From positions 380 to 64,379 of the forward strand of contig PWHN01000057.1 in the NCBI GenBank assembly GCA_003554945.1: a stretch of DNA of 64,000 nucleotides, given 5' to 3'. Position 1 is the first letter of the stretch, and the number at the start of each line of letters is the position of its first letter. The DNA is from a bacterium (GTDB lineage Bacteria > T1Sed10-126). Position numbers and translations under genes: made by a program. The notes beneath the pieces are model-generated. The model was given only the letters and a program-made list of their open reading frames with translations. It ran no database searches and was not told the DNA's origin. Shown here piece after piece: positions 17,031-42,068 of this stretch.

Positions 17031-17879
17031 ATGCAAGAATTTGTCGCTGCCGCCGCTCAGATAGCAATTGAAGAGCCGGATAATTTTTCAGAAAATACCC
17101 GCAAGGTGGCCCGCTACCAGCGGCGCACCACCGACCGCTTTAACGCTCAACTTGTTGTCTACCCCGAATCAATAACAACCGGATTTACTCCCGGAGTAAA
17201 ACCACCCGAACTTCACGACGTCCTCCCCCCGTCCATGGAAGAGGGTCTGGGGCCAGTCCTTGAAGCGACTCGAGAAACTAATAGCTACGCCGTTGTCTCC
17301 TCTTATGAGCCCGGCGAAGATAAAAACACTGTCTACAACAGCGCCTTCCTCTGCGGTCCCGACGGCAAAATTGAAGGTCGGTACCGCAAAACTCACCTGT
17401 TTCCTACCGAACGGGTTGAAAACAGTGGCTGGTCAACACCGGGCAAGGAAATTCCCGTTTTTGAGACTCGGCTTGGCAAAATTGGCATCATAATTTGTTA
17501 CGACGGCGACTTCCCGGAACTCTCACGAATCCTCGCTTTGAAAGGCGCCGAAATAATTGTCCGGCCCGCCGCACTGCTGCGTAGTTTTGAAATCTGGGAC
17601 ATGAGCAATCGTATGCGGGCCTACGAAAATGACGTCTACTTCATCGGCGTAAACGCGATCGGCGAAGATGGTGCCGGAACTAAATTTTTCGGCCACAGCA
17701 TGATTGTGTCTCCGGCTGGACGACGTCTCCATCTGGCCAGAGCCGGTGAAGAAATTATTGCCGCAACAGTTAAACCACTAACAAAACACGAGGGAATTGA
17801 ATCCAATTATCCCGTCCTGTTTGATCATCTCCAGGACCGTAATGTAGAAAGCTACCAGGATTACTTAACTGACCTGTGA
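17031..17879 (+). CDS. Carbon-nitrogen hydrolase (nitrilase/amidase superfamily)
   Basis: The Glu-Lys-Cys triad context is present: YPE, RKTHLF, and the catalytic Cys in GIIICYDGDFPE. An SD GAGGT lies upstream. Confidence 0.8.
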   Translation: MQEFVAAAAQIAIEEPDNFSENTRKVARYQRRTTDRFNAQLVVYPESITTGFTPGVKPPELHDVLPPSMEEGLGPVLEATRETNSYAVVSSYEPGEDKNTVYNSAFLCGPDGKIEGRYRKTHLFPTERVENSGWSTPGKEIPVFETRLGKIGIIICYDGDFPELSRILALKGAEIIVRPAALLRSFEIWDMSNRMRAYENDVYFIGVNAIGEDGAGTKFFGHSMIVSPAGRRLHLARAGEEIIAATVKPLTKHEGIESNYPVLFDHLQDRNVESYQDYLTDL

Positions 17880-17900
17880 AACCCAAACGGAGGGAATAAC

Positions 17901-19532
17901 ATGAGCTCTCACGATAAGCTGCTTGCCGATTACAGATTACGACGTGAAGCTGTTGCCCGTCAGCTCGACACTGAACTTTTCGTCAAACCAGAGCAAACAG
18001 TTGAACTGCTGGAAACTGCTATCAAACCGGGCGACGTCGTCTGTCTTGAAGGCAACAACCAGAAACAGGCGGATTTTTTAGCTGAAGCACTGAGTAAAGT
18101 TAACCCGAAAGAAGTAAACAACCTCCACATGGTTCAATCCTCGCTGGTCCTCGACGAACATGTTGAAGTTTTTGAAAAAGGTATCGCCAACCGGCTGGAT
18201 TTTGCCTTCTCTGGACCCCAGGCGAAAAAGCTCTTCAAAGCAGTAAATAGCCAGCAGGTCAATGTGGGCGCCATTCACACCTACCTTGAGCTTTATGGCC
18301 GTTATTTTGTCGACCTCACGCCGCGGGTGGCCATGGTTGTCGCCGACGCCTGTGATCCATCAGGAAACCTTTACACCGGCGCTAATACCGAAGATACACC
18401 GCTGATAACTGAAGCCACTAATTTTAAAAATGGACTTGTTATCGCCCAGGTGAGCGAGAAAAAAGATTCTCTTTCTCGGGTTGATATACCGGCCGACTGG
18501 GTGGATTACATAGTTGTCACTGAAGAACCCTACCATCACGAAGCGCTCTTCACCCGCGACCCCGCTCAGATTACCGACCTCCAGGTATTAACCGGAATGA
18601 TGATAATCAAGGGGATTTATGAAGAATACAAAGTAAGCAAGTTAAACCATGGTCTGGGATTTGCCACTGCCGCTGTTGAATTACTTCTGCCCACTTACGG
18701 GCGTGAAATTGGACTTAGCGGCGAAGTCTGCTCGCACTGGGTTCTAAATCCCCACCCAACACTTATCCCGGCGATTGAGGAAGGGATCGCTCAAAAAGTT
18801 TATCCGTTTGGCGGCGAAATCGGGACTAACGAATACGTCCAGGCCCGACCCGACGTTTTCCCCACCGATAGTAACGGACTCATGCGTTCCGGCCGCTGCA
18901 ACGCCCACGTTGCCGGCCTGTATGGTATTGACTGCTTTACCGGCGCCACCCTGCAAATCGACAAATATGGTAACAGTTCCACCGCCATCGACGGCATGAT
19001 CGCCGGCTTTGGAGGCGCCCCCAACCTTGGCTCAACTCCTCCCGGACGCCGGCATCAGACGGAAGCTTTCGCCAAAGCCGGCGCTGTTCATTACGACAAC
19101 CACTACGGCAGGAAACTTGTCGTCCAGGTCACTCCTACCGTCAGCGAAAAGAAAAGCATACCCGTTTTCCGGGAAAAGTTAGACGCCTATGACCTCTATG
19201 AAGCCGGTCACTTCGAAGCTCCGCCTGTCATGATTGACGCTCAACAGATGACTCACATCGTCACTGAAAAAGGTATCGCCTACCTCGACCGCTGTAACTC
19301 CATGGAAGAACAGATGGCCGCTGTTCGCGCCGTCGCCGGCGACACCGAGGTGGGCGAACGTGAACGCACTGCTGAAACTGACCGGCTGCGCACAAAGGGA
19401 AAGGTTAAAACACCTGACGACCTGGGTATAAATGTGGCTGATGCTACAACCGACAAACTTGCCGCACACAGTATTGAAGATCTGGTTGAAATTTCCAACG
19501 GCCTTTACAATCCACCGCAGTATTTACTCTGA
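17901..19532 (+). CDS. Malonate decarboxylase alpha-subunit (MdcA) / citrate lyase alpha (CitF) family acyl-transferase. It is stand-alone, with no mdcC/D/E nearby.
   Basis: The protein is 543 aa. Long collinear identity blocks with MdcA include LEGNNQKQADFL, LHMVQSS, GAIHTY.EL, GNLYTGANTEDTP, LNHGLGFATAAVELLLPTYG, HWVLNPHPTLIPAIE, GNSST and GFGGAPN. A strong SD GGAGGG lies upstream. Confidence 0.7.
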   Translation: MSSHDKLLADYRLRREAVARQLDTELFVKPEQTVELLETAIKPGDVVCLEGNNQKQADFLAEALSKVNPKEVNNLHMVQSSLVLDEHVEVFEKGIANRLDFAFSGPQAKKLFKAVNSQQVNVGAIHTYLELYGRYFVDLTPRVAMVVADACDPSGNLYTGANTEDTPLITEATNFKNGLVIAQVSEKKDSLSRVDIPADWVDYIVVTEEPYHHEALFTRDPAQITDLQVLTGMMIIKGIYEEYKVSKLNHGLGFATAAVELLLPTYGREIGLSGEVCSHWVLNPHPTLIPAIEEGIAQKVYPFGGEIGTNEYVQARPDVFPTDSNGLMRSGRCNAHVAGLYGIDCFTGATLQIDKYGNSSTAIDGMIAGFGGAPNLGSTPPGRRHQTEAFAKAGAVHYDNHYGRKLVVQVTPTVSEKKSIPVFREKLDAYDLYEAGHFEAPPVMIDAQQMTHIVTEKGIAYLDRCNSMEEQMAAVRAVAGDTEVGERERTAETDRLRTKGKVKTPDDLGINVADATTDKLAAHSIEDLVEISNGLYNPPQYLL

Positions 19533-19711
19533 CACTCAGAACCTATCGAAACATCTCCGTCCTTCACCCCTCTTTGTCTTTCACCCATTAAGGGAGAAAG
19601 ATGCGTTGGAAGGTTCTGCTGATACTCAAAAACCCTTGAAGCAGCAGCACAATCAAGATATATTTATTGTCAACAAACACCTATCAAGTCTTCTGGAAAG
19701 GTGATAATCCC

Positions 19712-20527
19712 ATGCGCACCCCTTTTAACTATTTTGCTCCCGAGACCTTATCCGATGCCCATGAGCTGCTTGAAAAACATGGAGAACGGGCCGAAATTCT
19801 GGCCGGGGGGACCGATTTACTGGTTGATATCCGCAATGACATGAAACAACCCGACGCTGTTATTGATATAAAAAACATTGAAGAACTCAACGGTGTGGAG
19901 TTTGATTCCGACGACGGACTAATAATAAATGCCGCCGCCACCTGCACCGAAGTTTCCAGCCACACTGTCGTCCGAGACCGGTATCCTTTCATAGTTGAGG
20001 CTACCTCGGAACTGGCCTCGCACCAGGTCCGCAACCGGGCGACCGTTGTTGGCAATATATGCAACGCCTCACCCTGCGCTGACGCCGCACGGCCTTTACT
20101 CTGTCTCGACGCCTCAGTTGAAATCAGTTCGCTACAAAACAAGCGAACGCTACCACTTGAGGAGTTCATCACCGGCGTAAAACAAAACGACCTCGCCCCT
20201 GGCGAGCTGGTCGAACGGGTGCGCGTCCCCGTTGAAATGGCTGACGCCCGCGGCGCCAACCGTAAACTTAAACGTATCAAGGGACATGACCTTTCTCTGG
20301 CCAGCGTTACAATGGTTAAAACAGATGCGGAAACACGAGTCTCAATTGGCGCCTGCGGTCCTACCCCGGTAGTGCTGACCGGTTTTGACGCCAGCACTGA
20401 CGTTGACGAGCTTTGCAGTGCAGCCGAAGAGGCTATTTCACCAATCGACGACGTTCGCTCTACCGCCGAATACCGAAACTTCATGATTAAACAGTATATC
20501 CGAGAACTCGACGAAGAGTTGAGCTAA
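19712..20527 (+). CDS. Molybdenum hydroxylase FAD-binding subunit (CoxM/XdhB-like). The start is chosen at MRTPFNYFAP because the SD AAGGTGA sits 8 nt upstream.
   Basis: The FAD-binding fold has ILAGGTDLLVDIRN. The medium-subunit size is typical (~270 aa). Confidence 0.75.
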   Translation: MRTPFNYFAPETLSDAHELLEKHGERAEILAGGTDLLVDIRNDMKQPDAVIDIKNIEELNGVEFDSDDGLIINAAATCTEVSSHTVVRDRYPFIVEATSELASHQVRNRATVVGNICNASPCADAARPLLCLDASVEISSLQNKRTLPLEEFITGVKQNDLAPGELVERVRVPVEMADARGANRKLKRIKGHDLSLASVTMVKTDAETRVSIGACGPTPVVLTGFDASTDVDELCSAAEEAISPIDDVRSTAEYRNFMIKQYIRELDEELS

Positions 20528-20561
20528 CTCGTAATTTTACAATTCTCCACGGGAGGTTATT

Positions 20562-21047
20562 ATGCAAATAAATTTAACCATCAACGGTAATGAATATAGC
20601 CGTGAGGTCGATGAACACAGAAATCTGCTTCACTTTCTCCGCGAAGACCTCGGGCTGACCGGCACAAAAGAAGGGTGTGGCGCCGGAGAATGTGGCGCCT
20701 GCACAGTAATTATGGACGGCGAGCCGGTAAATTCCTGTCTTGTCCTGGCCGCCGAAGCCGACGGCTCTGAAATTGAAACTATCGAAGGCGAAGCAAGTGA
20801 AGGTGAGTTATCTGACTTACAGCAGGCCCTGCACGAACATCACGCCGTGCAGTGCGGCTTCTGCACTCCCGGAATGATTATGTCTCTCAAAGACCTGCTC
20901 CGCCGTAACTCAACCCCCGGTGAAAATGAAATTAGACAGGCGATTGAAGGTAACCTCTGCCGCTGCACCGGTTACGAACAAATAATCGAAGCAGTCCTCG
21001 ATTTAACAGGCCAACTCGATGAAAGAGAGGAGTTAAAGTATGCGTGA
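20562..21047 (+). CDS. Molybdenum hydroxylase [2Fe-2S] small subunit (CoxS-like)
   Basis: The plant-type cluster GCGAGECGACTV and the second cluster CGFCTPG...CRCTGY are present. Confidence 0.85.
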   Translation: MQINLTINGNEYSREVDEHRNLLHFLREDLGLTGTKEGCGAGECGACTVIMDGEPVNSCLVLAAEADGSEIETIEGEASEGELSDLQQALHEHHAVQCGFCTPGMIMSLKDLLRRNSTPGENEIRQAIEGNLCRCTGYEQIIEAVLDLTGQLDEREELKYA

Positions 21048-23433
21048 AGACACTCCCCAGGAAGAACTTAACTACGTTGGTAAAGGAACTGAACGAGTTG
21101 ATACAACTGAAAAATTAACTGGAAAGGCCAAATACACCGGCGATTTGCGCATGCCCGGCATGCTCCACGCCGCCGTCAAACGCAGTCCTCATGCTCGCGC
21201 AAAAATTAATAACATCGACACCTCCGACGCTGAAGCCATCCCCGGTGTCCACGCCGTTGTAACCGGAAAAGAATTTGATTACAAACTCGGTCTCTACCTG
21301 GTCGATAAGGATGTTCTCGCCCGGGAACGTGTCCGCCACCACGGTGAGGCAGTTGCTGCCGTCGCCGCAGAATCTCCCGGTTTGGCCGAGCAAGCAGTGA
21401 AAAAAATTGACGTTGATTACGAAGTTGAAGAACCTGTTCTTGACGCCCTCGAAGCTATTGAGGATGACGACAAGCTTGTTCACCCCGAACTGGACGACTA
21501 CGATTACTTTGAGCCCGCCTTCTCCCCTCAACCCGGCACTAACGTCGCCAACCACACTAAGATCCGTAAAGGCGACGTAGAACAAGGTTTTGAAGAGGCT
21601 GACCACGTAATTGAACGGGAATACACTAATCCCAACGTCCAGCACGTACCGATGGAAACACACGTCGCCGTGGCAAGCTGGAAGGAACAGGATGAGCTTG
21701 ATGTCCATACATCATGTCAGTCCCCCTTCACCGTCCGCAATCTTCTCTGCGTCGCTTTTGACCTGCCCCATACAAATGTTCATGTAGAAGTTCCTTACGT
21801 TGGTGGCGGGTTTGGTGGTAAAGCGGGAATTGGTGTCGAACCTCTGGCCGCCTGTCTGTCTAAAAAAGCTAATGGCCGGCCGGTAAAACTGGAAGCCAGC
21901 CGCGAGGAAGAGTTCAGTCTACTTCCCTGCCGCAGCGGACTAACCTACCGGATTAAATCCGGTGTTACCGAAGACGGTGACCTCGTGGCCCAAAAAATGA
22001 CAATGTTCTGGGACTCCGGCGCTTACGCCGATTATGCCGTTAATGTCACACGGGCATCGGCTTACTCGGCTTCCGGCCCCTACGAAATTCCCAACGCCCA
22101 CGTCGATGCTTATACGATTTACACAAATAAACCCTACGGCACTGCTTACCGTGGTTTCGGACACGTTGAGTTCTCCTGGGGTCTTGAACGACACATGGAC
22201 TTACTTGCTGAAACTATTGATATGGATCCACTTGAATTTAGAAAACAAAACGCTCTCAAACCCGGTTCCATTACGATTACCGGCGAGAAGATAGTGGAAA
22301 ACACCGGCAATGTAACTAAGTGCATGGAAGTGGCCGCTGAGGCCATAAATTATGGCGAACTCACGCCTGAAGAAAAAAAGCGACAGGAAGAGACGGGAAT
22401 GAAGATCGCCAAATCCGTCTCCGCTCTGCACAAGGCGCCGGCTATGCCCTCCTTCACTGCAACCGCCGCCGAACTGCGCATGAACGAAGATGGCTCTATA
22501 AATGCCGATCTATCTCTAACGGAATACGGACAGGGAACTTACACCGCCCTCACCCAGATTATTGCTGAGGAACTGGGCTTCCCGCCGGAGCGTATCAACC
22601 TGAGCATTAAAGGGGATACGGACAAGGCGCCCTACGACTGGCAGACAGTCGCTTCCAAGGGCCTGCTGATGTCCGGTAACGCCTGCATTAAGGCTGCGCG
22701 CGATCTGCTTGAGAAGGCCTACCAGGACGCCTCTGAAGTCCTACGCGCCGACCCCTGTGACCTCGACCATAACGAAAACGAAATTTACATTAAACATCAC
22801 CCCGAAGAATCCGTAACTTTCTCAGAACTTGCTGTTGGGTATGCTTATCCAACCGGCGAAGGTATCGGCGGCCCGATTATCGGTGTCGGACGCTACATGG
22901 CCCAGGGGTTGACCAATCTTGATAAAGAGACCGGCCAGGGTGAGCCGGCCCTGGACTGGACTTACGGCTCCCACGGCGTTGTCGTTGAAGTCAACGAAAT
23001 AACCGGTGAGTTTAACATCCTTAAAGTCGCCTCCGCTTTTGACGTTGGAAAAGCTATTAACCCCGCCAATATCCGCGGCCAGGTGATCGGTGGACTGATC
23101 CAGGGGTTAGGAACAACCATCTGCGAAGGTTACGCTTACGACGACGAAGGACACCTGCTTAACCCCTCCTTTACCGACAACAAAATTCCCACTTCTATGG
23201 ACGTCCCCGAGGAAATTGAAGGTATAGTAATTGAAACGCCTCAAATAGACGGCCCCTACGGGGCTCGCGGCGTCGGCGAACACCCCATGATTGCTCTCTG
23301 CGGCGCTATCGGCAACGCAATTTACTACGCCGCCGGTGCCGACCTGACCCACATGCCCATTCGCTCCGAGGACGTCTGGTGGGCCCTGCATAAGGACGAG
23401 GACCGCGATCGACCAAGATATTCGATCTGCTGA
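21040..23433 (+). CDS. Molybdenum hydroxylase large (molybdopterin-binding) subunit of the xanthine dehydrogenase / aldehyde oxidase / CoxL family
   Basis: The protein is 797 aa and translationally coupled to the 2Fe-2S subunit. Motifs of the aldehyde oxidase/xanthine dehydrogenase a/b hammerhead and Mo-binding domains are present (GGGFGGK, Q.ESPF). Confidence 0.8.
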   Translation: MREDTPQEELNYVGKGTERVDTTEKLTGKAKYTGDLRMPGMLHAAVKRSPHARAKINNIDTSDAEAIPGVHAVVTGKEFDYKLGLYLVDKDVLARERVRHHGEAVAAVAAESPGLAEQAVKKIDVDYEVEEPVLDALEAIEDDDKLVHPELDDYDYFEPAFSPQPGTNVANHTKIRKGDVEQGFEEADHVIEREYTNPNVQHVPMETHVAVASWKEQDELDVHTSCQSPFTVRNLLCVAFDLPHTNVHVEVPYVGGGFGGKAGIGVEPLAACLSKKANGRPVKLEASREEEFSLLPCRSGLTYRIKSGVTEDGDLVAQKMTMFWDSGAYADYAVNVTRASAYSASGPYEIPNAHVDAYTIYTNKPYGTAYRGFGHVEFSWGLERHMDLLAETIDMDPLEFRKQNALKPGSITITGEKIVENTGNVTKCMEVAAEAINYGELTPEEKKRQEETGMKIAKSVSALHKAPAMPSFTATAAELRMNEDGSINADLSLTEYGQGTYTALTQIIAEELGFPPERINLSIKGDTDKAPYDWQTVASKGLLMSGNACIKAARDLLEKAYQDASEVLRADPCDLDHNENEIYIKHHPEESVTFSELAVGYAYPTGEGIGGPIIGVGRYMAQGLTNLDKETGQGEPALDWTYGSHGVVVEVNEITGEFNILKVASAFDVGKAINPANIRGQVIGGLIQGLGTTICEGYAYDDEGHLLNPSFTDNKIPTSMDVPEEIEGIVIETPQIDGPYGARGVGEHPMIALCGAIGNAIYYAAGADLTHMPIRSEDVWWALHKDEDRDRPRYSIC

Positions 23434-23533
23434 CGATTTCGTCTTAAATACTCGCAGCGACTTCTTACTCAAGGACACATCACCTCTGTGGGGACGTGTC
23501 TCTGCCCTCTTCGAAAACTCCTTCGATATTCTT

Positions 23534-24238
23534 TTGGATGATTACCTGGTAAATATCAACTCCGCTCGTCCCGCCCTACATCCGCTGGGAATACTGAGCC
23601 CCGCTTCACTTATTTCTGAAGTCCGCACTGACCAGACGGCTACACTTGAGCCCAACCAGCTTCAAATTGGGTCGCGACAATTCCAGCTTCAGACCCATTT
23701 CGAGCCACCACCTCCTCCTGCAGCAAATGAATTAAAAAATATTGATCTCTCCCCCCTGCGCAAATGTCTCAAAATCCAGGTTAATAAAAGCCGACACAGC
23801 TCTTGCCTCTTGACAAACGATTTTGACTCTCCGCCTGAAATTATTTCCCGCGCCGGACGCGCTTTAGTCGCACAGCTGAATGAAAAACAGGTTGATTTTA
23901 ACCGGCTGTTAAATTACTTTGGCGACGGTGAGGGACTTACCCCTTCTTTTGACGACATCTGCGCTGGAATGCTCTTCGTTGACCGACGGCTAAACTGCAG
24001 CAATGTTAAGCTGCCCGGCGACCTTTTCGAACGGCTAAAAAACAAAACTACCCTGACCAGCCGCTGGCAACTTGAGTTTGCTCGGCGGGGGAAGCTCAGT
24101 CTGGCTTTCGAACAGCTATTTAACCGGCTGATAGAGGGAAAAGTAGCAATTAAAGACTGCTTCTCAGCCTGTCGCTGCGGTCATACTTCGGGTGCAGACA
24201 TATTAACCGGAATTTATCTTTATTTTGAAAATTTCTAA
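23534..24238 (+). CDS. Hypothetical protein, possibly DUF2877-like (YlbF/AllH-type partner of FdrA and DUF1116). It starts with TTG in the track, and the start is uncertain.
   Basis: The protein is 234 aa with GDGEGLTPSFDD and GHTSGADILTG motifs. Its position directly after the Mo-hydroxylase and before fdrA/DUF1116 supports the call. The assignment rests mainly on context. Confidence 0.35.
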   Translation: MDDYLVNINSARPALHPLGILSPASLISEVRTDQTATLEPNQLQIGSRQFQLQTHFEPPPPPAANELKNIDLSPLRKCLKIQVNKSRHSSCLLTNDFDSPPEIISRAGRALVAQLNEKQVDFNRLLNYFGDGEGLTPSFDDICAGMLFVDRRLNCSNVKLPGDLFERLKNKTTLTSRWQLEFARRGKLSLAFEQLFNRLIEGKVAIKDCFSACRCGHTSGADILTGIYLYFENF

Positions 24239-24639
24239 CCACTCAACACTGTTCACCCAACATATAGTTAAATGCAAAGTTTGACCGTTTTATACCTTCC
24301 TGATCAACATAATCTGTGCCTCAAACTATGCATATAACTTAACCAACCGCGAGTTGCCTTCAAAACCACCTTTTTAACACCATATTACTCTCCCCTAACT
24401 ACGCCCACGTCCGTTCAACCCCTTTAACGCACTCTTTTTAGACAGCCTTTTCCCTGCACAAAGCCTGAAAAACCCAATTTTTCCTGGTTTTTACAAAATT
24501 GAATTGGTAACTGTTTAGCGCCTATCGTCATATTTCGTTTAGTTCGTCATTTCGACCCCAGAGCTGGAAAACACCAGCTTAAAGCTCAAAGCTAATTCAA
24601 ATCCATTAAGTGCTCATAATCTTGTTCTTTAACTTGAGT

Positions 24640-25060
24640 TTGGTTTTGGTCTTTCGCCTCTTCGCCCCGTCGCCCGCTCGCCTCTTCGAGCATTCCGGCC
24701 TCCGAGCCGGAATCCAGAGGCGTTGAGCTTTTGATTGTCATTCCTGCGGAAGCGGGAATCCAGCGGCGTTGAATTTGAATTAAGAAAAAGTCAATGTCAA
24801 AGTCACTGGATTGTCCGGTCAAGCCGGACAATGACGACCAATAGATCAAGCCCGTTCTTGAATTTGACGTCATTCCGGCCTCCGAGCCGGAATCCATCTT
24901 GAAGAGCAGTAATCGGTAATCGGTAATCAGTGTTCAGTGAAGTCAAAACCGATTACCGAATACCGAACACCGTTTACTGAACTTCTTGCAGGTCAAGTCC
25001 TGGGACGTTATTCGTTCCCGCAATGACGGCCGATAGAGCATACCCGTAACGGCGGCGGTG
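24640..25060. repeat. Copy A of a modular hairpin-rich miniature repeat family. It holds dRS3-like hairpins of the form ATTCC(G/C)GC-N6-8-GC(G/C)GGAAT at 24692..24713, 24740..24759 and 24871..24892. It holds a TTGTCCGG..CCGGACAA hairpin at about 24810..24830, a TCGGTAA heptamer array at about 24908..24960, and a TTATTCGTTCCCGCAATGAC module at about 25005.
   Basis: I read these directly from the sequence. The same modules recur at 26430..26600, 28805..29060, 33470..33710 (inverted) and 57610..57700. Track ORF 24592..24897 is an artefact of the repeat. Confidence 0.8.
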
Positions 25061-25154
25061 GCGCCAAATAAATACGCAAATTGCTATCAATCGAATAAAA
25101 ACAAATATTGTTCTGTTATATTCAATGAATAGATAAACGACCACACTAACTACA

Positions 25155-25283
25155 CCCCCTCAGAAAAAATTTCCTCCTTGAAGGGGGGAAAGACAAAGGG
25201 AGATGAAATATAGCCCTCGCACGCAAGGGAAAAGGCAACTTTTTAGAAAGTCTCTAACTACGTCAAAGTATTTTGACGTAGTT
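25155..25283. repeat. H3 module (CCCCCTT..GGGGAAAGACAAAGGG) at 25155..25200, followed by a perfect 12-bp-stem hairpin AACTACGTCAAA-GTAT-TTTGACGTAGTT at 25256..25283 that abuts the integrase start codon
   Basis: The inverted repeat is read directly. The H3 module also occurs at 26458..26505, 33528..33575 and 57617..57650. Confidence 0.75.
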
Positions 25284-26288
25284 ATGGATAAATTCCACGC
25301 TGATGGGTGGTCTATCATGCAAAAAACATTGGAGGTAAGTGGCGGCTCCATGCCGACGGCACATCTGCTGGCGGAGGATTTTCAACGCATGTTGACGGAA
25401 AACGACTACAGTCAGAGCACCTGCTCCACTTACCTCCGCTTCGTCGAACCCTTCCTCAAAGAAAATCCTCATCCCGCAGAAATGGACCGTTATGACGTCG
25501 GACGGTACATCCTCAAGTGGCGCAATCAGCTCAGCAATAACTCGATGAAACTGGCCACCAGCGCCCTGATTAAATTTTACAAATACCTTAAGTTTTACCA
25601 CGGTTTCCGACGGGCCGACGCAGTTATCGATCACATCCAGGATTTGAAGGGAGAATTTTTTCGCACCCCCTCTTTTCAACCGGACCCGATGAGCGAGGAT
25701 GAATTAAGTACCCTCTTCCAGTACACCCTGGGGGCAAATCCCCGTCAGGTTAGGCGCCGAAATATCATTACTATACTGCTGGGCACCGGTCTGCGCGTCT
25801 CCGAATTCTGTGCCGTGCGCCGCGATCAGGTTGCGATCCACGAACCCGGCGTCCAGTCACATATTTTTGTTCCCGGGGGAAAAACAGCTTCGGCCCGGCG
25901 CAAAATTCCTCTCCACCGCGACTTCCCCTACTCCAACTCCTGGATACTCGGCGAACGAGTCGTCGAAGCATTCGACAGCTATGAAAAAGTCCGACCCGTT
26001 CCTCGAACTGAGGAAACAGAAAATTTCTGGTTTATCTCCGAACGGGGCCAGCCCATCTCCAAACGTTCCGTCCAGGCAATGTTTACCCGTCTCTGTGAAA
26101 AATCAGGGCTGCAGAAAAAAAGGGCGGAAGCTGATGAAAACTCACTGTCGGTTCACAATCTACGTCACACTTTTGCCACTCAACTGGCCATGCAGGGAGC
26201 TAACGCCTACCAGATCAAGGCTATCCTCGGCCACGCTTCAGTCAGCACCTCCCAGGCCTACATCCGACTGCTCGATCGCGTCGGCTAA
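25284..26288 (+). CDS. Tyrosine recombinase/integrase. The start is ambiguous (25203, 25284, 25317 or 25350). The track's first 27 codons are encoded by repeat DNA and are probably not real.
   Basis: The catalytic motifs are present: box I GLRVSEFCAV, the K-box GGKTASAR, and HNLRHTFAT...LGHASVSTSQAYIR with the tyrosine. About 90 residues lie between the K-box and the HxLRH box, which is longer than in XerC/D. Confidence 0.8.
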   Translation: MDKFHADGWSIMQKTLEVSGGSMPTAHLLAEDFQRMLTENDYSQSTCSTYLRFVEPFLKENPHPAEMDRYDVGRYILKWRNQLSNNSMKLATSALIKFYKYLKFYHGFRRADAVIDHIQDLKGEFFRTPSFQPDPMSEDELSTLFQYTLGANPRQVRRRNIITILLGTGLRVSEFCAVRRDQVAIHEPGVQSHIFVPGGKTASARRKIPLHRDFPYSNSWILGERVVEAFDSYEKVRPVPRTEETENFWFISERGQPISKRSVQAMFTRLCEKSGLQKKRAEADENSLSVHNLRHTFATQLAMQGANAYQIKAILGHASVSTSQAYIRLLDRVG

Positions 26289-26429
26289 AAAACAGTCGTT
26301 ACTCACTCCAAATAGCTTACCTGACCGACCGGGGATAACTAACGCCGGTCCAACCCTACGTTTTTATTTAGTTTATCAGCAATTTTCGATACACTTGTAG
26401 AAATAAGAAACTCACTCAAAACCACTCAA

Positions 26430-26600
26430 CGTCACCCCGGACAGGTGACCCCGGAATCCCCCCTTTCTTTTTCCCCCCTTGAAGGGGGGAAAGACAAAGG
26501 GGGGTGAAGAAAATGGATTGCGGAGCGGGGTCCGCAATGACGAGCAATAGGTCACTATCTGAAAAGTTATTCGTTCCCGACAATGACAAAAACATTGGAA
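26430..26600. repeat. Partial copy of the modular repeat family. It holds a GTCACC..GGTGAC hairpin, an H3 module at 26458..26505, the H2 hairpin ATTGCGGAGCGGGGTCCGCAAT at 26517..26538, and a TTATTCGTTCCCGACAATGAC module.
   Basis: Read directly. Track ORF 26412..26615 on the minus strand lies entirely within the repeat and is probably spurious. Confidence 0.75.
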
Positions 26601-26635
26601 GATTTTAAACCCCACAACAGAGGAGTGTAAAAACT

Positions 26636-28162
26636 ATGGAAGTAATCACTAAAATCAAGCAGGACACCTATTACGACTCAGTGACACTGATGCTGGTCAG
26701 CAGCGAAATTGAAAAAATGGAAGCTGTTGAAGAAGCGATGATCGGCATGGGAACGGATTACAACATCGAGAGCCTTCAACGGCTGGATATGTTTGGCACA
26801 GAGCACGAGGACGCAACACCGAATGACCTGATTCTCACCGTAAAAGCAGCCGACGCCAAAGCGGGCGAAAAAGCTATTGAAACGGCAGAAGAAAAGCTGA
26901 AAGAAAAATCTCAATCCAGCGGTGGCGTAAGCGCCTACAACCCTCCGACCCAGGAGAGAGCCGCCGACATGCTCCCCGGGGCCAACATGGTCTTAATTTC
27001 TGTGCCGGGTGAGCACGCAGCCAAAGAGGCCCACGAAGCACTGGACAACGACCGGCACGTCATGCTGTTTTCGGACAACGTAAGCCTGGATGAAGAACTG
27101 GAACTGAAAGAAAAAGCGGTGAAAAAAGGACTGCTTATGATGGGGCCCGACTGCGGGACCTCAATTATCAACGGCGTGCCACTCGCCTTCGCCAACGCCG
27201 TTCGCGGGGGTAATATTGGACTGGTCGCCGCCTCGGGCACCGGCCTGCAGGAGACTACGAGCATAATTCATCAGCTTGGTGGCGGTATCAGTCAGGCTAT
27301 CGGTGTCGGCGGACGCGACCTCTCTGCCCAAATTGAAGGGCGAATGACGCTACTGGCCGCCAGGGCCCTCGATCGCGACGACAATACCGATGTTATCACC
27401 CTGATTTCTAAACCACCCGACGAGACAATCCTCGCACCTCTGCTAAAGGAGCTTAATTCACTCAGTAAACCGGTAGTCATTTATTTTATTGGTGCCGATC
27501 AGGCAAAAATTGAAGCGGAAGGATTCACCGCCGCCGGCGACCTGGAGAACGCTGCCGTACAATCCTGCCGGCTCGCTGGTGTTGATGCTGCCGACTCACT
27601 AATAAACCAGGCGGAAATTGAACAAAAAGCGGCCAAAATACAGCTTTCCGGTCCTTATCTACGTGGTCTCTATTCCGGCGGCACTCTCTGCGATGAAGCC
27701 CAGCGAATCCTCCACGATCGGCTGGATGAAATTTACTCGAACACACCCGTTGAAGGTTGTCACGAACTCGAAGACCTCTATCAAAGCAAAGCGCACACAA
27801 TCATCGACCTCGGCGAGGACGAGTTCACCCAGGGACGCGCTCACCCCATGATCGATCCTACACTGCGTAAAGAAAGAATTGTTCAAGAAATGCAAGACCC
27901 TGAAGTGGGGATAATACTGTTGGACGTCGTCCTCGGCTATGGCGCTCATCCGGACATGGCCGGTGCCCTCGTCGAAGCTATAGAAGAGGGTAAATCCGCC
28001 GCGGACAGTCCACCGCTGGTTGCCGCTTCTATCTGTGGAACCGACCAGGACCCGCAAAATTACGAACAGCAGAAAAATACCCTCGAAGAGGCTGGGGTTT
28101 ATGTTTTCCCATCTAACGTCTCCATGGTAAAATTTGCATATCAGTTGTTTGAAACGACATAA
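26636..28162 (+). CDS. fdrA: FdrA family protein (succinyl-CoA-synthetase-like fold), reported in E. coli as the AllF subunit of oxamate carbamoyltransferase
   Basis: The protein is 508 aa. Its N-terminus MEVITKIKQDTYYDSVTLMLVSSEI is characteristic of FdrA. CoA-binding and ligase-like glycine-rich segments are present (GPDCGTSIINGV, GLVAASGTGLQE). The SD is AGAGGAG. Confidence 0.7.
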   Translation: MEVITKIKQDTYYDSVTLMLVSSEIEKMEAVEEAMIGMGTDYNIESLQRLDMFGTEHEDATPNDLILTVKAADAKAGEKAIETAEEKLKEKSQSSGGVSAYNPPTQERAADMLPGANMVLISVPGEHAAKEAHEALDNDRHVMLFSDNVSLDEELELKEKAVKKGLLMMGPDCGTSIINGVPLAFANAVRGGNIGLVAASGTGLQETTSIIHQLGGGISQAIGVGGRDLSAQIEGRMTLLAARALDRDDNTDVITLISKPPDETILAPLLKELNSLSKPVVIYFIGADQAKIEAEGFTAAGDLENAAVQSCRLAGVDAADSLINQAEIEQKAAKIQLSGPYLRGLYSGGTLCDEAQRILHDRLDEIYSNTPVEGCHELEDLYQSKAHTIIDLGEDEFTQGRAHPMIDPTLRKERIVQEMQDPEVGIILLDVVLGYGAHPDMAGALVEAIEEGKSAADSPPLVAASICGTDQDPQNYEQQKNTLEEAGVYVFPSNVSMVKFAYQLFETT

Positions 28163-28278
28163 CTAAACGCAAAAACGCCAAGAAATCGATTTGGAGGATG
28201 ACATCAAAAACTATAACAACTTTAAGATCAAGAGCGAAAAACACTAAGTCGCAAAGACGCTAAGGAAGACAATTAATT

Positions 28279-28521
28279 ATGGACGAGAATTATTTGAGTA
28301 ATCAAATAATCAATGCTGCTATTGAGGTTCATCAATGGCTCGGTGGACCTGGTTTGTTGGAGTCTGTGTACGAAAAATCTTTAGCAAAAGAGTTACGGGA
28401 TCGTAACTTTAAAATTCAACAACAAGTCAGCTTCCCTATTGAATATAAAGAGGAAGAACTTAATGAAAAATTCAGATAAGAAGGTATCCATCGAGTGGTT
28501 AACAATTTGTAATTAAAAACT
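28279..28521 (+). pseudogene. Degraded GxxExxY-family gene (PD-(D/E)XK-like, often transposon-associated). The N-terminal 66 codons are followed by a stop and then by the family's C-terminal EGIHRVVNNL in frame. About 50-60 internal codons are deleted.
   Basis: The N-terminal part is NAAIEVHQWLGGPGLLESVYEKSLAKELRDRNFKIQQQVSFPIEYKEEEL..FR. After the TAA the frame continues EGIHRVVNNL-stop, which matches the family C-terminus G(I/L)xRxVNN. The local region is AT-rich. Confidence 0.6.
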
Positions 28522-28590
28522 TTGCGGCTTTGCGCCTTCGCGTTTTTGCTTTTTTTCACTATGTCATTAACCTATAACAGGGTGATTTTT

Positions 28591-28764
28591 ATGAAGCCAA
28601 TTGACTCGCTTTTTAACGAAGAAGTTAAAGTGATTAACCTGGGGATTCCCGCTTTTCGCGACGACCTTGACGAGCAGGGCGTGGAAGTGGTTCACGTCGA
28701 CTGGAGTCCTCCGGCCGGCGGCAACAAAAAAATGCAGTCACTGCTCAACCAGCTCAAGGGGTGA
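28591..28764 (+). CDS. Small hypothetical protein of 57 aa (MKPIDSLFNEEVKVINLGIPAFRDDLDEQGVEVVHVDWSPPAGGNKKMQSLLNQLKG), located between fdrA and the DUF1116 gene
   Basis: An SD-like AGGGTGA lies 7 nt upstream of the ATG. There is no recognisable family. The longer track ORF 28522..28764 begins with a hydrophobic stretch that is unlikely to be real. Confidence 0.35.
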   Translation: MKPIDSLFNEEVKVINLGIPAFRDDLDEQGVEVVHVDWSPPAGGNKKMQSLLNQLKG

Positions 28765-28804
28765 CTATTAAAAATCATTTGAGCTTATTAGGATTATCTC
28801 AAAA

Positions 28805-29060
28805 TTTTTCCTCGTCATTCCCGCGGAAGCGGGAATCAAGTTGAAGTTCAGTAACCGGTAATCGGTAGTCGGTGATCGGTAACTTCGGTAGTTCAACATC
28901 AAAGTCACTGGATTACCCGGTCGAGCCTTGGGGCGTTATTCGTTCCGGGCAATGACGTTCGGTAATGCTGAATTACGGGTCGGACCCCACAATGATGAGC
29001 GTAAGGTCTTGACTGTCATTCCCGCGGAAGCGGGAATCCAGCGACGTTGAACTTATGATG
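28805..29060. repeat. Copy B of the modular repeat family, in the same orientation as copy A. It holds ATTCCCGCGGAAGCGGGAAT hairpins at 28817..28836 and 29017..29036, a TCGGTAA heptamer array, and TCAAAGTCACTGG and TTATTCGTTCCGGGCAATGAC modules.
   Basis: Read directly. The module order is shuffled relative to copy A. Confidence 0.8.
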
Positions 29061-29119
29061 GTTAAGAAGCATCCGCTTTTGATATTATGATGTTAACCCG
29101 CAACACACAACACGATGTT

Positions 29120-29306
29120 ACTTTCACACTTTTTCACTTTTTAACTTTTTAACTTTGCAACTTTATAACTTTCACACTTTTAAACTTTGTAACTTTCACA
29201 CTTTTAAACTTTGTAACTTTCACACTTTTAAACTTTGTAACTTTCACACTTTTAAACTTTGTAACTTTCACACTTTTTAACTTTCACACTTTTTAACTTT
29301 CACACT
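29120..29306 (+). promoter_or_regulatory. Tandem array of about 23 octamers (A/C)ACTTTNN. It includes four perfect copies of the 24-mer CTTTCACACTTTTAAACTTTGTAA and ends in CTTTCACACTCTAAGGAGG (the SD), 9 nt before the DUF1116 ATG. It is extremely G-poor.
   Basis: Direct reading shows ACTTT recurring with strict 8-bp period over about 187 bp. A second shorter array of the same unit precedes the next gene. Confidence 0.8.
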
Positions 29307-29322
29307 CTAAGGAGGAAATAAA

Positions 29323-30570
29323 ATGAACGTTGACATAGAAAAAGCTAATCAGAAGGTAATCGATAAAATCCAGGCTGGTAATCCGGTACTTAAAGGTATT
29401 GGAACGGTTGGTGAAAATGTCCCGGAAGTTCACAAAAAAATGATACTTCACGCCGGCCCGCCAGTGGAATGGGAAGACATGAGTGGCCCCACCAGGGGAG
29501 CTGTAATTGGCGGTTTAATCTACGAGGGGCTTGCCAAAGACGAGGACGAGGCGCGGGCGCTCGCCGCATCCGGTGAAATAGAGTTTGACCCCTGGCACGA
29601 ACATAGTGGTGTTGGGCCGATGGCCGGCGTCGCCACTGTCAGCATGCCGGTCTGGATTGTGGAAAATACGACTGAAGGCGGGCAAGCCTACTGCACATTC
29701 AACGAAGGGCTTGGCAAGGTCTTACGTTACGGTGCCTACGCGCCTGATGTGATTGACCATCTTAAGTGGATGGAAAATGAGCTGGCTCCAGTTTTAACTG
29801 AAACGCTGGCCCAGCTTGATAATGAAATAAACCTGAAGAGTATTATCGCTGAAGCTCTTGAGATGGGAGATGAGGTTCACAACCGCAACCGGGCGGCCAC
29901 TTCACTCTTCTACCGCCGCATCACTCCGGCTCTTTTGGAAACCGATTTCAACGTTGATAAAAAGAAAAAGGTCCTGGAATTTATTGACTCTAACGATCAT
30001 TTCTTTTTAAATCTCAGCATGCCGGCGGCCAAATCAATGATCCAGGTCGCCGAGGGAATTGAAGGCTCCTCTATCCTGACAGTTTTAGCACGAAACGGTA
30101 CTGAAACGGGAATAAAAATAGCCGGACTGGGTGACCAGTGGTTCACCGCCAAAGCGCCGGTTCCCGAGGGCCTGCTCTTCTCCGGTTACGATAAAGACGA
30201 CGCCTGTGCCGATATTGGCGACAGCACGATCACTGAAACTGTCGGTCTTGGTGCCTTTTCCATGGCTGCCTCACCGGCAATTGTTAAATTTGTCGGCGGC
30301 AGCGTCGAGGACGCTTTCAACTTCACCCGTAAAATGTATGAAATCTGTGAAGACGAGTCCGAAAACTTCAAGGTGGCCACGCTGGACTTTCGCGGCGCAC
30401 CGACCGGAGTCAACTTGCTAAAAGTCTGTGAGCTTGATATCACGCCCCAGATTAATACCGGTATAGCCCACAAGGAGCCGGGCATAGGACAAATTGGGGC
30501 CGGACTTGTTCAGGCACCAATGAAGTGTTTCGAACAGGCGCTGGAGGCGTTCGCCGCCAAATACGCATAA
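29323..30570 (+). CDS. DUF1116 family protein (YlbE-like), reported as the AllG subunit of oxamate carbamoyltransferase
   Basis: The protein is 415 aa. The conserved N-terminal block ILHAGPPVEWEDMSGPTRGAVIGGLIYEGLAKDEDEA and the block NEGLGKVLRYGAY are typical of YlbE/DUF1116. The gene context with fdrA supports it. Confidence 0.65.
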   Translation: MNVDIEKANQKVIDKIQAGNPVLKGIGTVGENVPEVHKKMILHAGPPVEWEDMSGPTRGAVIGGLIYEGLAKDEDEARALAASGEIEFDPWHEHSGVGPMAGVATVSMPVWIVENTTEGGQAYCTFNEGLGKVLRYGAYAPDVIDHLKWMENELAPVLTETLAQLDNEINLKSIIAEALEMGDEVHNRNRAATSLFYRRITPALLETDFNVDKKKKVLEFIDSNDHFFLNLSMPAAKSMIQVAEGIEGSSILTVLARNGTETGIKIAGLGDQWFTAKAPVPEGLLFSGYDKDDACADIGDSTITETVGLGAFSMAASPAIVKFVGGSVEDAFNFTRKMYEICEDESENFKVATLDFRGAPTGVNLLKVCELDITPQINTGIAHKEPGIGQIGAGLVQAPMKCFEQALEAFAAKYA

Positions 30571-30574
30571 CTAA

Positions 30575-30633
30575 AACTTTCACACTTTGTAACTTTCAAA
30601 CTTTCACACTTTGTAACTTTCAAACTTTCACAC
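30575..30633 (+). promoter_or_regulatory. Second tandem array of about 7.5 octamers (AACTTTCA / CACTTTGT / AACTTTCA ...). It ends in CTTTCACACTCTAAGGAGG, 8 nt before the cyclase ATG.
   Basis: Direct reading. The terminal 19 nt are identical to the end of the first array. Confidence 0.8.
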
Positions 30634-30650
30634 TCTAAGGAGGAGTCACA

Positions 30651-31430
30651 ATGGTAAAACTTTATGATTTAACACAAGATCTGAGCATTCACACCCCCCC
30701 CTGGCCCAGTTACATGCCCCTGCAACTGCAGTATTTTAAACGTATTTCAGGTGCCCACATGGGACAGGGAGCCAACGGTCAGATCGTCAAGACGAGTATG
30801 CACGTCGGCACACACATAGACGGCGAGAAACACTTTGACGCCAAGGGACGGACGATAGGCGAAGTCCCGCTTGAGGAATTTTGCGGGGAGGGAGTAGTCG
30901 TTGACATCTCTGATGATGTTGAAGATTTTTCTCTTTACTCACCCGAGATGCTGGAATCAAAGGCCGACATTCGTGAAGGAGACATTCTAATAATTAACAC
31001 CGGCTACCACAGATACGCCTGGGACCAGCCCGAGAGCGACGAGCTGCGCTACATGGTCAAACACCCGGGCCCAAACCCTGACTTTCACAAGTGGGCCCTG
31101 GAGATGGATTTCAAGTGGATTGGCGTCGACTGCGGTAGTGCCGACCATCCGATGAACACTATCCTTCGTGACTGGCACCCCGGTCTGTTCGAAAAAGCCG
31201 AGGCAAAACTTAAAGAAGACTACGGCAAGAGCTGGGACGAGATGTTCCCCTACGAGGAATACTACCAGGTCATGCACCTTGATCTATTTCCAGAGGGCCT
31301 GATCCACGCCGAAAACCTCGGCGGCGAAATTAACGAGCTCAACAACCAGCGCTCCTGGATTGGGCTTTTCCCCTGGAAAGGTATCGAAATGGAGTCCTCA
31401 ATCTGCCGCATTGCTGCTTTTGAGTTTTAA
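30651..31430 (+). CDS. Cyclase-family metal-dependent hydrolase (kynurenine formamidase / isatin hydrolase family)
   Basis: The signature motif HxGTHxDxxxH appears as MHVGTHIDGEKHF. The protein is 259 aa. The SD is AAGGAGG. Confidence 0.75.
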   Translation: MVKLYDLTQDLSIHTPPWPSYMPLQLQYFKRISGAHMGQGANGQIVKTSMHVGTHIDGEKHFDAKGRTIGEVPLEEFCGEGVVVDISDDVEDFSLYSPEMLESKADIREGDILIINTGYHRYAWDQPESDELRYMVKHPGPNPDFHKWALEMDFKWIGVDCGSADHPMNTILRDWHPGLFEKAEAKLKEDYGKSWDEMFPYEEYYQVMHLDLFPEGLIHAENLGGEINELNNQRSWIGLFPWKGIEMESSICRIAAFEF

Positions 31431-41249: not shown

Positions 41250-41256
41250 CTTATTT

Positions 41257-41670
41257 CTACTCCCCCTTGAAAGTAACTAATTTGTCTTCTTCTTCGACGC
41301 TCTCGCCTTCGTTTACGTAAACCTGATCTACAGTCCCAGCTTGAGGGGCAGGAATGACCGTTTCCAGTTTCATCGCCTCCAGCTTTACCAGATCGTCACC
41401 GGATTTTACACTATCTCCCACATTGACCATGACCTCCAATACCTTGCCCGAAAGCGGTGACAAAACTTCTCCTCCCTCAGCGACATTTGGCTCGCTCGCA
41501 TCCTGGGCAACCGTCCCGCCCCCGGTTTGCTCACCTGAGCCCGATCCGGCTCCCTTGAGAAGCTTAAATCTCCAGCTTTTTTCGCCGATTCGTGCTTCGT
41601 AACCGTCACCGGCCCAATCAACTTCTATCTCAATTTTTTCGCCGTCTCGCTCAAATTCATATTTTGCCAT
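41257..41670 (-). CDS. Biotin carboxyl carrier subunit of the decarboxylase (MmdC/GcdC-like)
   Basis: The biotinyl-lysine motif EAMKLE is present, along with a C-terminal lipoyl/biotinyl domain and an Ala/Gly/Pro-rich linker. Confidence 0.75.
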   Translation of the reverse strand: MAKYEFERDGEKIEIEVDWAGDGYEARIGEKSWRFKLLKGAGSGSGEQTGGGTVAQDASEPNVAEGGEVLSPLSGKVLEVMVNVGDSVKSGDDLVKLEAMKLETVIPAPQAGTVDQVYVNEGESVEEEDKLVTFKGE

Positions 41671-41769
41671 TCTATCAGTCCTGTTTCATCACCTACCGAA
41701 GCATATCCCCTCTCCCGGAAGAGCGGGGGAAGTAATTTTCGGAAAACTTCGCTAGATTGTGATCTTGTT

Positions 41770-42054: not shown

Positions 42055-42068
42055 AAAAGGTCACCATG

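Follow-up and report, generated by a model that had tools for sequence, protein, structure and literature searches.

The 64,000-nucleotide (nt) stretch analysed here, the window (positions 380 to 64,379 of contig PWHN01000057.1, assembly GCA_003554945.1, from a bacterium of the GTDB lineage T1Sed10-126), carries at positions 17031-31430 a same-strand cluster in which a three-subunit molybdenum hydroxylase (CoxMSL) is joined to homologues of the E. coli AllH, AllF and AllG proteins, a cyclase-family metal hydrolase, a nitrilase-superfamily amidase (CN_hydrolase) and a stand-alone MdcA-like transferase. The cluster is very probably a conserved operon for the catabolism of a nucleobase or ureide. 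The balance of the evidence leans, by a modest amount, towards its being one version of a widespread operon for the anaerobic catabolism of uracil, and probably of thymine, and to the same modest degree we favour the specific route from uracil through barbiturate, ureidomalonate and malonamate to malonate. The family assignments, the synteny and the nature of the partner genes were observed directly; from them we infer every substrate and every reaction. A first-pass annotation, made from the sequence alone, had proposed an N-heterocycle or ureide catabolic module. Profile matches and synteny support this idea, and the candidate substrate is narrowed from purines, pyridines and ureides to uracil.

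Open reading frames (ORFs) of the window were listed and searched with Pfam and NCBIfam profiles; coordinates are window positions (Table 1). All genes reported earlier were found on the plus strand with the families as named. The hidden Markov model (HMM) searches that had been suggested place the protein at 23534..24238, previously assigned to DUF2877 by motifs and context, and the putative DUF1116 protein at 29323..30570 in these very families. The earlier gene list is correct for what it contains and incomplete, as a 57-amino-acid (aa) ORF encoding the C-terminal tail of AllF had been overlooked. Alignment with the similar locus L089 makes the ATG at 19712 a likelier start for CoxM than the start of the ORF at 19667.

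One genome per GTDB species was scanned with an alignment of the cyclase. Relatives were found in at least 540 genomes, and the best 80 loci were analysed by tblastn, de novo ORF clustering and family HMMs, partner genes being counted in the 33 loci whose cyclase has 8 kb or more of sequence on either side. Of these loci, 32 have AllG and 32 have AllF; CoxL and AllH are found in 17 each, the identical 17 loci, within 8-10 kb of the cyclase. Other partners are a family of 253-aa proteins (10 loci, usually with a thiolase and a DUF35 protein), amidase-signature enzymes (8), family III coenzyme A (CoA) transferases (8), NCS2 permeases (7) and CN_hydrolases (2). The best 80 loci come from Riflebacteria/Ozemobacteraceae, Cloacimonadota, Hydrogenedentota, Bacteroidales, Myxococcota, Elusimicrobia, Sumerlaeota and others, and gene order is kept across Cloacimonadota, Bacteroidales, Myxococcota, Hydrogenedentota, Thermotogae and others. 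Whether the adjacency was only local had been left to a comparison of neighbourhoods; in the present one, synteny of these genes extends to many distant genomes.

AllF-tail-AllG-cyclase is a nearly invariant core. The layout of the window, CoxMSL-AllH-AllF-tail-AllG-cyclase, recurs in unrelated metagenome-assembled genomes in which AllG is 66-75% identical, sometimes with a CN_hydrolase gene after the cyclase (L005/L007). In Cloacimonadota and Bacteroidales the order is AllH-AllF-tail-AllG-cyclase-CoxMSL, followed either by a CoA-transferase and an amidase or by the 253-aa protein, thiolase and DUF35, and then by a permease; Riflebacteria mostly carry AllF-tail-AllG-cyclase alone. A variant was seen in L096 (5329-11467) and L097, where a UraA-type permease, AllH, AllF, an AllG of 469 aa, a member of the 253-aa family and a 113-aa protein follow each other; no cyclase gene and no Mo-hydroxylase were found within these loci.

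E. coli AllFGH interconverts oxalurate plus phosphate and oxamate plus carbamoyl phosphate, oxalurate being an N-acylurea (PMC11326118). AllG of the window is 43% identical to its E. coli counterpart over the full length, the AllF body is 41% identical to E. coli AllF, the tail ORF 49% identical to AllF residues 509-555, and AllH 31% identical to E. coli AllH over 120 aa of the C-terminal domain. Since the AllF body stops at profile position 494 and the tail covers positions 505-555, AllF is split in this operon family, a 508-aa body and a 57-aa tail taking the place of the single 555-aa protein of E. coli. Relatives always have an ORF of 59-76 aa between AllF and AllG, which aligns with that of the window; in some lineages the tail is joined to AllG instead, giving an AllG of 467-474 aa. 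As in E. coli, the three subunit families occur together, H before or next to F, and then G, and the reaction proposed by analogy would again be phosphorolysis of an N-acylurea to an amide and carbamoyl phosphate. Unlike the E. coli allFGH operon, the cluster has neither an adjoining carbamate kinase gene (allK) nor the allantoin genes allBCDE; it is linked to a cyclase-family hydrolase, a Mo-hydroxylase and uracil-related genes, and the substrate would be ureidomalonate instead of oxalurate. A tblastn search with E. coli AllK gave no match in the window, and among the loci a carbamate kinase gene was found in L091 only, at the locus edge, beside a gene for YgeW, a protein of the reductive urate pathway (PMC12507026). 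The absence of the kinase, reported earlier, is real; it is no peculiarity of the window, being general to the operon family.

The N-terminal 35-45 residues encoded in the AllH frame, from about 23435, align with AllH of L003, and no ATG, GTG or TTG is found in the frame upstream of the TTG at 23534. The start called for AllH in L089 is an ATG that lies within coxL, 62 nt before its end. At the corresponding site, near 23372, the window reads ACG, a change synonymous in the coxL frame, and its TTG at 23534 corresponds to TTA in L089. Given the ACG and the lack of an earlier canonical start, AllH of the window either begins non-canonically or has a shortened N-terminus.

The cyclase is 75-96% identical to its homologues across many phyla, as measured in the best 80 of the at least 540 genomes, and the metal motif HVGTHIDGEKH is invariant in homologues. 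It is conserved far more than its partners, AllF and CoxL varying between 39-72% and 40-81% identity, respectively, in loci L009-L088; such conservation suggests very strong constraint and/or horizontal spread. Family PF04199 and the HxGTHxDxxxH motif are shared with kynurenine formamidase, isatin hydrolase and dihydrophloroglucinol cyclohydrolase, and cleavage of a ring or amide beside a carbonyl would be the common role. Dihydrophloroglucinol cyclohydrolase opens a six-membered 1,3-dicarbonyl ring in anaerobes, and isatin hydrolase opens a lactam (PMC10470551). Unlike these enzymes, from which it is remote in sequence, the cyclase belongs to an extremely conserved subfamily of its own: it scores 48.6 with the model of the kynurenine formamidase KynB (TIGR03035, cut-off 223), and its best PDB match has an E value of 2e-8. 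By analogy with the characterized members, it is proposed to open the barbiturate ring.

The Mo-hydroxylase has the three-subunit build of the xanthine dehydrogenase/CoxL family, with flavin adenine dinucleotide (FAD), two [2Fe-2S] clusters and the molybdenum cofactor. CoxL falls below every NCBIfam equivalog cut-off. The best names are xanthine dehydrogenase subunits (NF043082, 505.9 against a cut-off of 780; TIGR03196, 443 against 783), and the best PDB match is a CoxL, with an E value of only 2e-96. Form I CO dehydrogenase was considered and rejected, as the AYXCSFR loop of that enzyme is missing (TAYRGFGH instead of VAYRCSFR) and TIGR02416 scores 362.7 against a cut-off of 991. In xanthine oxidoreductase, Glu802 and Arg880 bind the substrate and Glu1261 is catalytic (bovine numbering). 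Inspection of the motifs GGGFGGKA, AYRGFGH and GVGEH indicates that CoxL has Ala at the Glu802 position, in the first of them, and keeps the Arg in AYRGFG and the catalytic Glu in GVGEH. It is proposed to be a uracil (and thymine) C6-hydroxylase. Xanthine and nicotinate, two of the candidates put forward for testing in the first-pass annotation, are judged unlikely as substrates.

The Glu-Lys-Cys triad motifs of CN_hydrolase (PES, RKTH, ICYDGD) are conserved in alignment. Its counterparts located after the cyclase gene in L005/L007, or paired with MdcA in L091, share 46-53% identity with it, and the enzymes from these contexts belong to one subfamily. MdcA scores 735.7 with TIGR01110, against an equivalog cut-off of 789.15. 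No MdcC, MdcD or MdcE was found among the window ORFs scanned, the neighbours of MdcA being CN_hydrolase and CoxM. MdcA is present in one of the 80 cyclase-anchored loci. The arrangement of the window is found again in L089 (MdcA 93% and CN_hydrolase 90% identical), the CN_hydrolase-MdcA pair alone in L090; in L091, from Kiritimatiellia, the two genes overlap, and the pair lies beside and divergent to a [253-aa protein]-thiolase-DUF35-AllH-AllF-AllG-cyclase operon, and in L092 MdcA is 7-8 kb away from an amidase and a MoCoBD gene. The description of MdcA as stand-alone is accurate as to the lack of MdcC/D/E partners; the gene is no regular component of such clusters, and travels as a CN_hydrolase-MdcA pair (L089, L090 and L091).

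Many related operons encode an amidase-signature enzyme and a family III CoA-transferase, the best matches of the latter being oxalate and succinate/glutarate transferases. The CN_hydrolase and MdcA of the window parallel this pair, a case of non-homologous replacement. Unrelated enzyme pairs at the equivalent place define two steps, from an amide to an acid and from the acid to its CoA ester. MdcA is the malonate-specific transferase of malonate decarboxylase. Its specificity, together with the dicarboxylate type of the CoA-transferases found elsewhere, makes malonate the most likely acid. Like MdcA/MadA of malonate decarboxylase, the protein of the window matches PF16957 over its full length and is presumed to be specific for malonate; unlike them, it is not accompanied by MdcC/D/E/B/G/H, is paired with CN_hydrolase and stays below the TIGR01110 cut-off. 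With CN_hydrolase as partner and no decarboxylase subunits, it is presumed to be a free CoA-transferase.

Three kinds of contextual signal, independent of each other, point to uracil: permeases, nucleoside- and base-converting enzymes, and the malonate product. The permeases embedded in related operons are of the UraA type, being 35-39% identical to E. coli UraA with 243-270 bits, against 71-137 bits with XanQ and UacT. They are found in Cloacimonadota, in Thermotogae (L094/L095, between CoxL and AllF) and in L096/L097, and uracil permease is their best NCBIfam match. In L048 (Elusimicrobia) and L076 (Sumerlaeota) the order is AllF-AllG-[cytosine-deaminase-like amidohydrolase]-cyclase-[uridine phosphorylase], and the uridine phosphorylase of L076 exceeds the equivalog cut-off of TIGR01718 (286.5 against 280.3). 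Cytosine deaminase and uridine phosphorylase deliver uracil from cytosine and uridine. Rfam searches of the window and four operon loci at the gathering threshold returned tRNAs only, and no riboswitch that might serve as a clue to the ligand.

In the proposed route, the Mo-hydroxylase would oxidise uracil at C6 to barbiturate, and the cyclase would hydrolyse barbiturate, yielding the N-acylurea ureidomalonate (3-oxo-3-ureidopropanoate). AllH, AllF, its tail and AllG, by analogy with the E. coli enzyme, could then use phosphate to split ureidomalonate, which is oxalurate plus one CH2, into malonamate and carbamoyl phosphate; a carbamate kinase encoded elsewhere could turn the latter into ATP. 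The 'oxalurate/oxamate-like' intermediates envisaged earlier would fit ureidomalonate and malonamate, the one-carbon-longer homologues of oxalurate and oxamate. CN_hydrolase would convert malonamate to malonate and NH3, and the MdcA-like transferase malonate and acetyl-CoA to malonyl-CoA and acetate. Finally, a Na+-pumping decarboxylase encoded 9 kb downstream could decarboxylate malonyl-CoA, or the methylmalonyl-CoA derived from thymine. This biotin-dependent set scores 775 bits with TIGR01117, less than the cut-off of 998.8, and 465.6 with TIGR01109 (cut-off 190.6); its link to the pathway is circumstantial. A separate biotin carboxyl carrier protein gene (43773-44210), a fumarase, a malic enzyme and an RnfC/Nuo51-like gene were noted around it.

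The known oxidative pyrimidine route leads from uracil through barbiturate and ureidomalonate to malonate and urea, by means of uracil/thymine dehydrogenase, barbiturase and ureidomalonase (Soong et al., cited in PMC3758960). The proposed intermediates are the same. Unlike in the classical pathway, the ring would be opened by a PF04199 cyclase-family enzyme and not by an AtzD-family barbiturase, the ureide would be cleaved phosphorolytically, with an amidase acting next, instead of being hydrolysed to urea, and malonate would be activated by a linked transferase. The classical pathway is that of aerobic actinomycetes, whereas the hosts here are uncultured lineages, probably anaerobic. Neither an AtzD-family barbiturase nor an amidase-signature ureidomalonase was found in the cluster or in the related operons scanned, an amidase-signature protein being present in some relatives alongside AllFGH.

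Other readings of the gene set deserve consideration. The cyclase might hydrolyse uracil directly to 3-ureidoacrylate, AllFG(H) yielding carbamoyl phosphate and 3-aminoacrylate, hence malonic semialdehyde, and the Mo enzyme acting as an aldehyde oxidoreductase that supplies malonate to MdcA. The uracil-pointing partner genes and MdcA fit such a hydrolytic route equally well, the core of Riflebacteria-type loci has no Mo enzyme nearby, the Mo-hydroxylase family includes aldehyde oxidoreductases and CoxL has no equivalent of Glu802. The route is nonetheless unlikely: it leaves without a role the amidase or CN_hydrolase that co-occurs with CoxMSL, and ureidoacrylate is a vinyl urea and not, like oxalurate, an N-acylurea (PMC11326118). 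Chemically, the aromatic uracil ring is also a difficult target for direct hydrolysis; the known routes oxidise, reduce or oxygenate it first (PMC12507026). CoxL, moreover, keeps the Arg at the Arg880 position of xanthine oxidoreductase. Aldehyde oxidases, to our knowledge, lack an equivalent of that residue. A small but somewhat more appreciable chance goes to a different substrate (orotate, 5-substituted uracils, hydantoins, or compounds of the cyanurate/biuret type), or to AllFG acting as an ADP-forming, acyl-CoA synthetase-like enzyme and not as a carbamoyltransferase. FdrA does have CoA-binding and ligase domains like those of succinyl-CoA synthetase, the frequent GNAT-fold (the 253-aa family, see below), thiolase and DUF35 partners suggest acyl-CoA chemistry, and creatinine and other deaminases also fall within the cytosine deaminase family. 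Against this, uridine phosphorylase passes its equivalog cut-off, uracil or thymine is the best fit for UraA-type permeases and the malonate-specific MdcA, and carbamoyl transfer is the sole biochemical finding on the trio (PMC11326118).

A purine route, with the Mo enzyme as xanthine dehydrogenase and the trio as an oxamate carbamoyltransferase acting on oxalurate from urate or allantoin, would account for the 41% and 43% identity of AllF and AllG to the E. coli enzyme and for the best NCBIfam names of CoxMSL, xanthine dehydrogenase subunits, though these score under the cut-offs; NCS2 permeases also include xanthine and urate carriers. It was rejected as very improbable because the neighbourhoods examined hold no allantoin-pathway genes and the permeases are of the UraA and not of the XanQ/UacT type: uricase, allantoinase, allantoate amidohydrolase, ureidoglycine aminohydrolase and ureidoglycolate dehydrogenase are missing from the cluster, its immediate flanks and the recurrent families of the 80 loci. 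Uridine phosphorylase and the cytosine-deaminase-like gene in the operon and the Ala of CoxL at the Glu802 position also speak against it, and MdcA and the dicarboxylate CoA-transferase have no role in oxamate metabolism. Least probable of all, to a degree that makes it hardly credible, is that mobile DNA brought the genes in the window together by chance, or that they are the remains of a decaying operon, and in either case no working unit. The operon does contain two insertions, with an integrase, repeats and a fragment of a nuclease gene, and AllH lacks the start codon used in L089; yet all pathway ORFs are intact, L089 keeps the order, including the inserted region after AllH, with proteins about 90-93% identical, the CoxL substitutions between the two are synonymous in the aligned stretch inspected (e.g. 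GAT to GAC), and the gene set is syntenic across phyla.

The 253-aa partner family (231-288 aa) has about 2,700 homologues, all annotated as 'hypothetical', and is absent from the window. Searches of the 253-aa protein against Pfam, NCBIfam and PDB profiles gave no sequence match. Its AlphaFold2 model has a GNAT fold (pLDDT 74.9), and all top Foldseek matches in the PDB are GNAT acetyltransferases. In many operons the gene comes directly after that of the cyclase or AllG, with or without an archaeal-type thiolase and DUF35 (examples in Table 1). These partners imply further acyl-CoA chemistry beyond the scheme. Known malonyl-CoA decarboxylases use a GNAT fold, and by analogy a malonyl-CoA decarboxylase-like role is conceivable for the family.

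Several observations weigh against the uracil-to-malonate route. The GNAT-fold protein, alone or with thiolase and DUF35, often replaces or joins the amidase and CoA-transferase, and has no clear place in the scheme. Riflebacteria-type loci show no Mo-hydroxylase or AllH within 10 kb, and L094, from Thermotogae, has CoxMSL but no AllH, so that neither is obligatorily linked to the core. The operon has no linked carbamate kinase gene, either in the window or in the loci examined, the copy in L091 being assigned to the reductive urate pathway, and no uracil permease is encoded in the window. MdcA normally works on a prosthetic group bound to acyl carrier protein; the use of a free CoA ester is assumed here. 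Finally, AllH of the window has no canonical start at the conserved position, and with insertions of 2.4 kb and 1.1 kb the expression of the operon is uncertain.

A bolder reading, to which we give slightly less than even chances, is that the operon family represents a widespread, unrecognised anaerobic pathway of pyrimidine fermentation, present in at least 540 species-level genomes from many phyla, most of them uncultured, in which three steps of the oxidative pathway are carried out by unrelated enzymes. If this is true, these would be a Mo-dependent uracil dehydrogenase, a cyclase-fold barbiturase and an AllFGH-type ureidomalonate phosphorylase, the last storing the energy of the ureide bond as carbamoyl phosphate, hence as ATP. 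Decarboxylation of malonyl-CoA might add a sodium-motive step, and the GNAT-fold family might be a further component of the pathway.

No description of the gene set or of ureidomalonate phosphorolysis was found in the literature, in which subscription journals were covered incompletely and prior publication is possible; the earlier view that the unit is undescribed agrees with this. The oxidative pyrimidine pathway dates from the 1950s. Its intermediates are known; new here would be the unrelated enzymes for ring opening and ureide cleavage and a new substrate for the AllFGH class. The pyrimidine routes named in a 2025 paper are only the oxidative, reductive, Rut and URC ones (PMC12507026). 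If the proposed route holds, it gives a function to a very common, unannotated operon of uncultured bacteria from sediments, digesters and the subsurface (Cloacimonadota, Riflebacteria, Hydrogenedentota, Kiritimatiellia, Thermotogae and others). A second substrate would also make acylurea phosphorolysis a general reaction type of the AllFGH enzymes, a class discovered recently. Pyrimidines would then be fermentable with a substrate-level gain of ATP, and the likely misannotations 'kynurenine formamidase', 'malonate decarboxylase alpha', 'xanthine dehydrogenase' and 'oxamate carbamoyltransferase' would be corrected. The operon would also provide candidate genes for uracil dehydrogenase, an activity for which we know of no assigned sequence.

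Table 1. Features of the cluster and related elements (window positions, unless a locus is given)
Feature	Position	Strand	Profile match or remark
CN_hydrolase (nitrilase-superfamily amidase), 282 aa	17031..17879	+	PF00795, E 1.2e-45, 156 bits
Stand-alone MdcA-like acyl/CoA transferase, 543 aa	17901..19532	+	PF16957, 752 bits, full-length
Mo-hydroxylase FAD subunit (CoxM/XdhB-like)	ORF 19667..20527, likely start 19712	+	PF00941, E 5e-51
Mo-hydroxylase 2x[2Fe-2S] subunit (CoxS-like)	20562..21047	+	PF01799 and PF00111
Mo-hydroxylase molybdopterin subunit (CoxL/XdhA-like, MoCoBD), 797 aa	21040..23433	+	PF01315, PF02738, PF20256
AllH/DUF2877 homologue	ORF 23534..24238, frame open from before 23435	+	PF11392, 58.9 bits (cut-off 25)
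Inserted repeat DNA with recombinase gene	24239..26635	+	Between AllH and AllF
Xer-like tyrosine recombinase	25203..26288	+	Pfam/NCBIfam
AllF/FdrA body, 508 aa	26636..28162	+	NF004760, 511 bits (cut-off 433), profile positions 4-494 of 555
Truncated PD-(D/E)XK (PDDEXK_3) gene fragment	28279..28479	+	PF13366, profile positions 3-62 of 117
Split C-terminal tail of AllF, 57-aa ORF	28591..28764	+	NF004760, positions 505-555 of 555, E 1.9e-12
Spacer with palindromic GTCATTCCCGCGGAAGCGGGAATC repeats and 8-nt-periodic array	28765..29322	+	Ends at AllG Shine-Dalgarno sequence
AllG/DUF1116, 415 aa	29323..30570	+	PF06545, 311 bits
Cyclase-family metal hydrolase, 259 aa	30651..31430	+	PF04199, E 6e-33, 114.5 bits (cut-off 23.1)
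Na+-translocating biotin decarboxylase set: MmdA-like carboxyltransferase, biotin carrier (41257-41670), beta pump subunit	40131..43640	-	
GNAT-fold family, example	L041:5509-6264		
GNAT-fold family, example	L012:10827-11561		
GNAT-fold family, example	L094:12248-12976		
GNAT-fold family, example	L096:10347-11072		
GNAT-fold family, example	L091:6053-6826	-	

The inserted DNA, described earlier as two stretches of repeats and integrase sequence, was confirmed in both. Direct repeats of 38 nt (TTTCCTCCTTGAAGGGGGGAAAGACAAAGGG...), located at 25170-25207 and 26471-26508, bracket the recombinase gene. Recombinase and repeats resemble a small integrative cassette within the operon, and the same repeat is found in L089. 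The region directly after AllH is common to the window and L089, which indicates that the insertions are not recent and that the operon persisted with them. The spacer between AllF and the tail ORF (28163-28590) contains the truncated PDDEXK_3 gene, which is inserted DNA outside the pathway. The palindromic repeats GTCATTCCCGCGGAAGCGGGAATC and CATTCCGGCCTCCGAGCCGGAATC and runs of the heptamer GTAATCG (24690-24900, 28814-28837 and 29015-29038) occur in the window only inside the two intergenic gaps of the operon. Arrays with a period of 8 nt, made up of units such as AACTTTCACACTTTTTAACTTT with a 24-nt super-period, reach the Shine-Dalgarno sequences of AllG (29116-29306) and the cyclase (30574-30634); they might act as an unstructured leader or a regulator. 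The 12-mer AACTTTCACACT is found 13 times in the window, where 0.28 occurrences are expected, and only in these two arrays; among the loci it is present in L001, L002 and L009, from the same or a very close organism, and in no other.

Some genes near related operons were set aside. Those upstream of AllF in Riflebacteria (c19, c22 and others), considered as divergent AllH proteins or alternative oxidoreductases, are unrelated and encode a lipase, a metallo-beta-lactamase-fold protein, a peptidase and the like; ABC-2 transporter and methyltransferase genes close to some operons were judged unrelated, and the 'u469' group of ORFs proved to be an artefact, antisense to AllG.

The cluster is flanked on the opposite strand by unrelated genes, which encode a GT2 glycosyltransferase, a CBS-DHH-poly(A) polymerase fusion, a malic enzyme and a fumarase. 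The malic-enzyme-family gene (32086-33399, minus strand) is also beside the operon in the closest relative, L009, and such a gene is found upstream of AllF in Riflebacteria loci such as L022, L028, L031, L035, L042 and L044 (8 of the 80 loci). The proximity may be fortuitous, or may reflect a functional link, for instance a decarboxylating step. The fusion protein, encoded at 13234-15837 on the minus strand, is 867 aa long and combines DHH/DHHA1 phosphoesterase, CBS and poly(A) polymerase/CCA-adding head domains.

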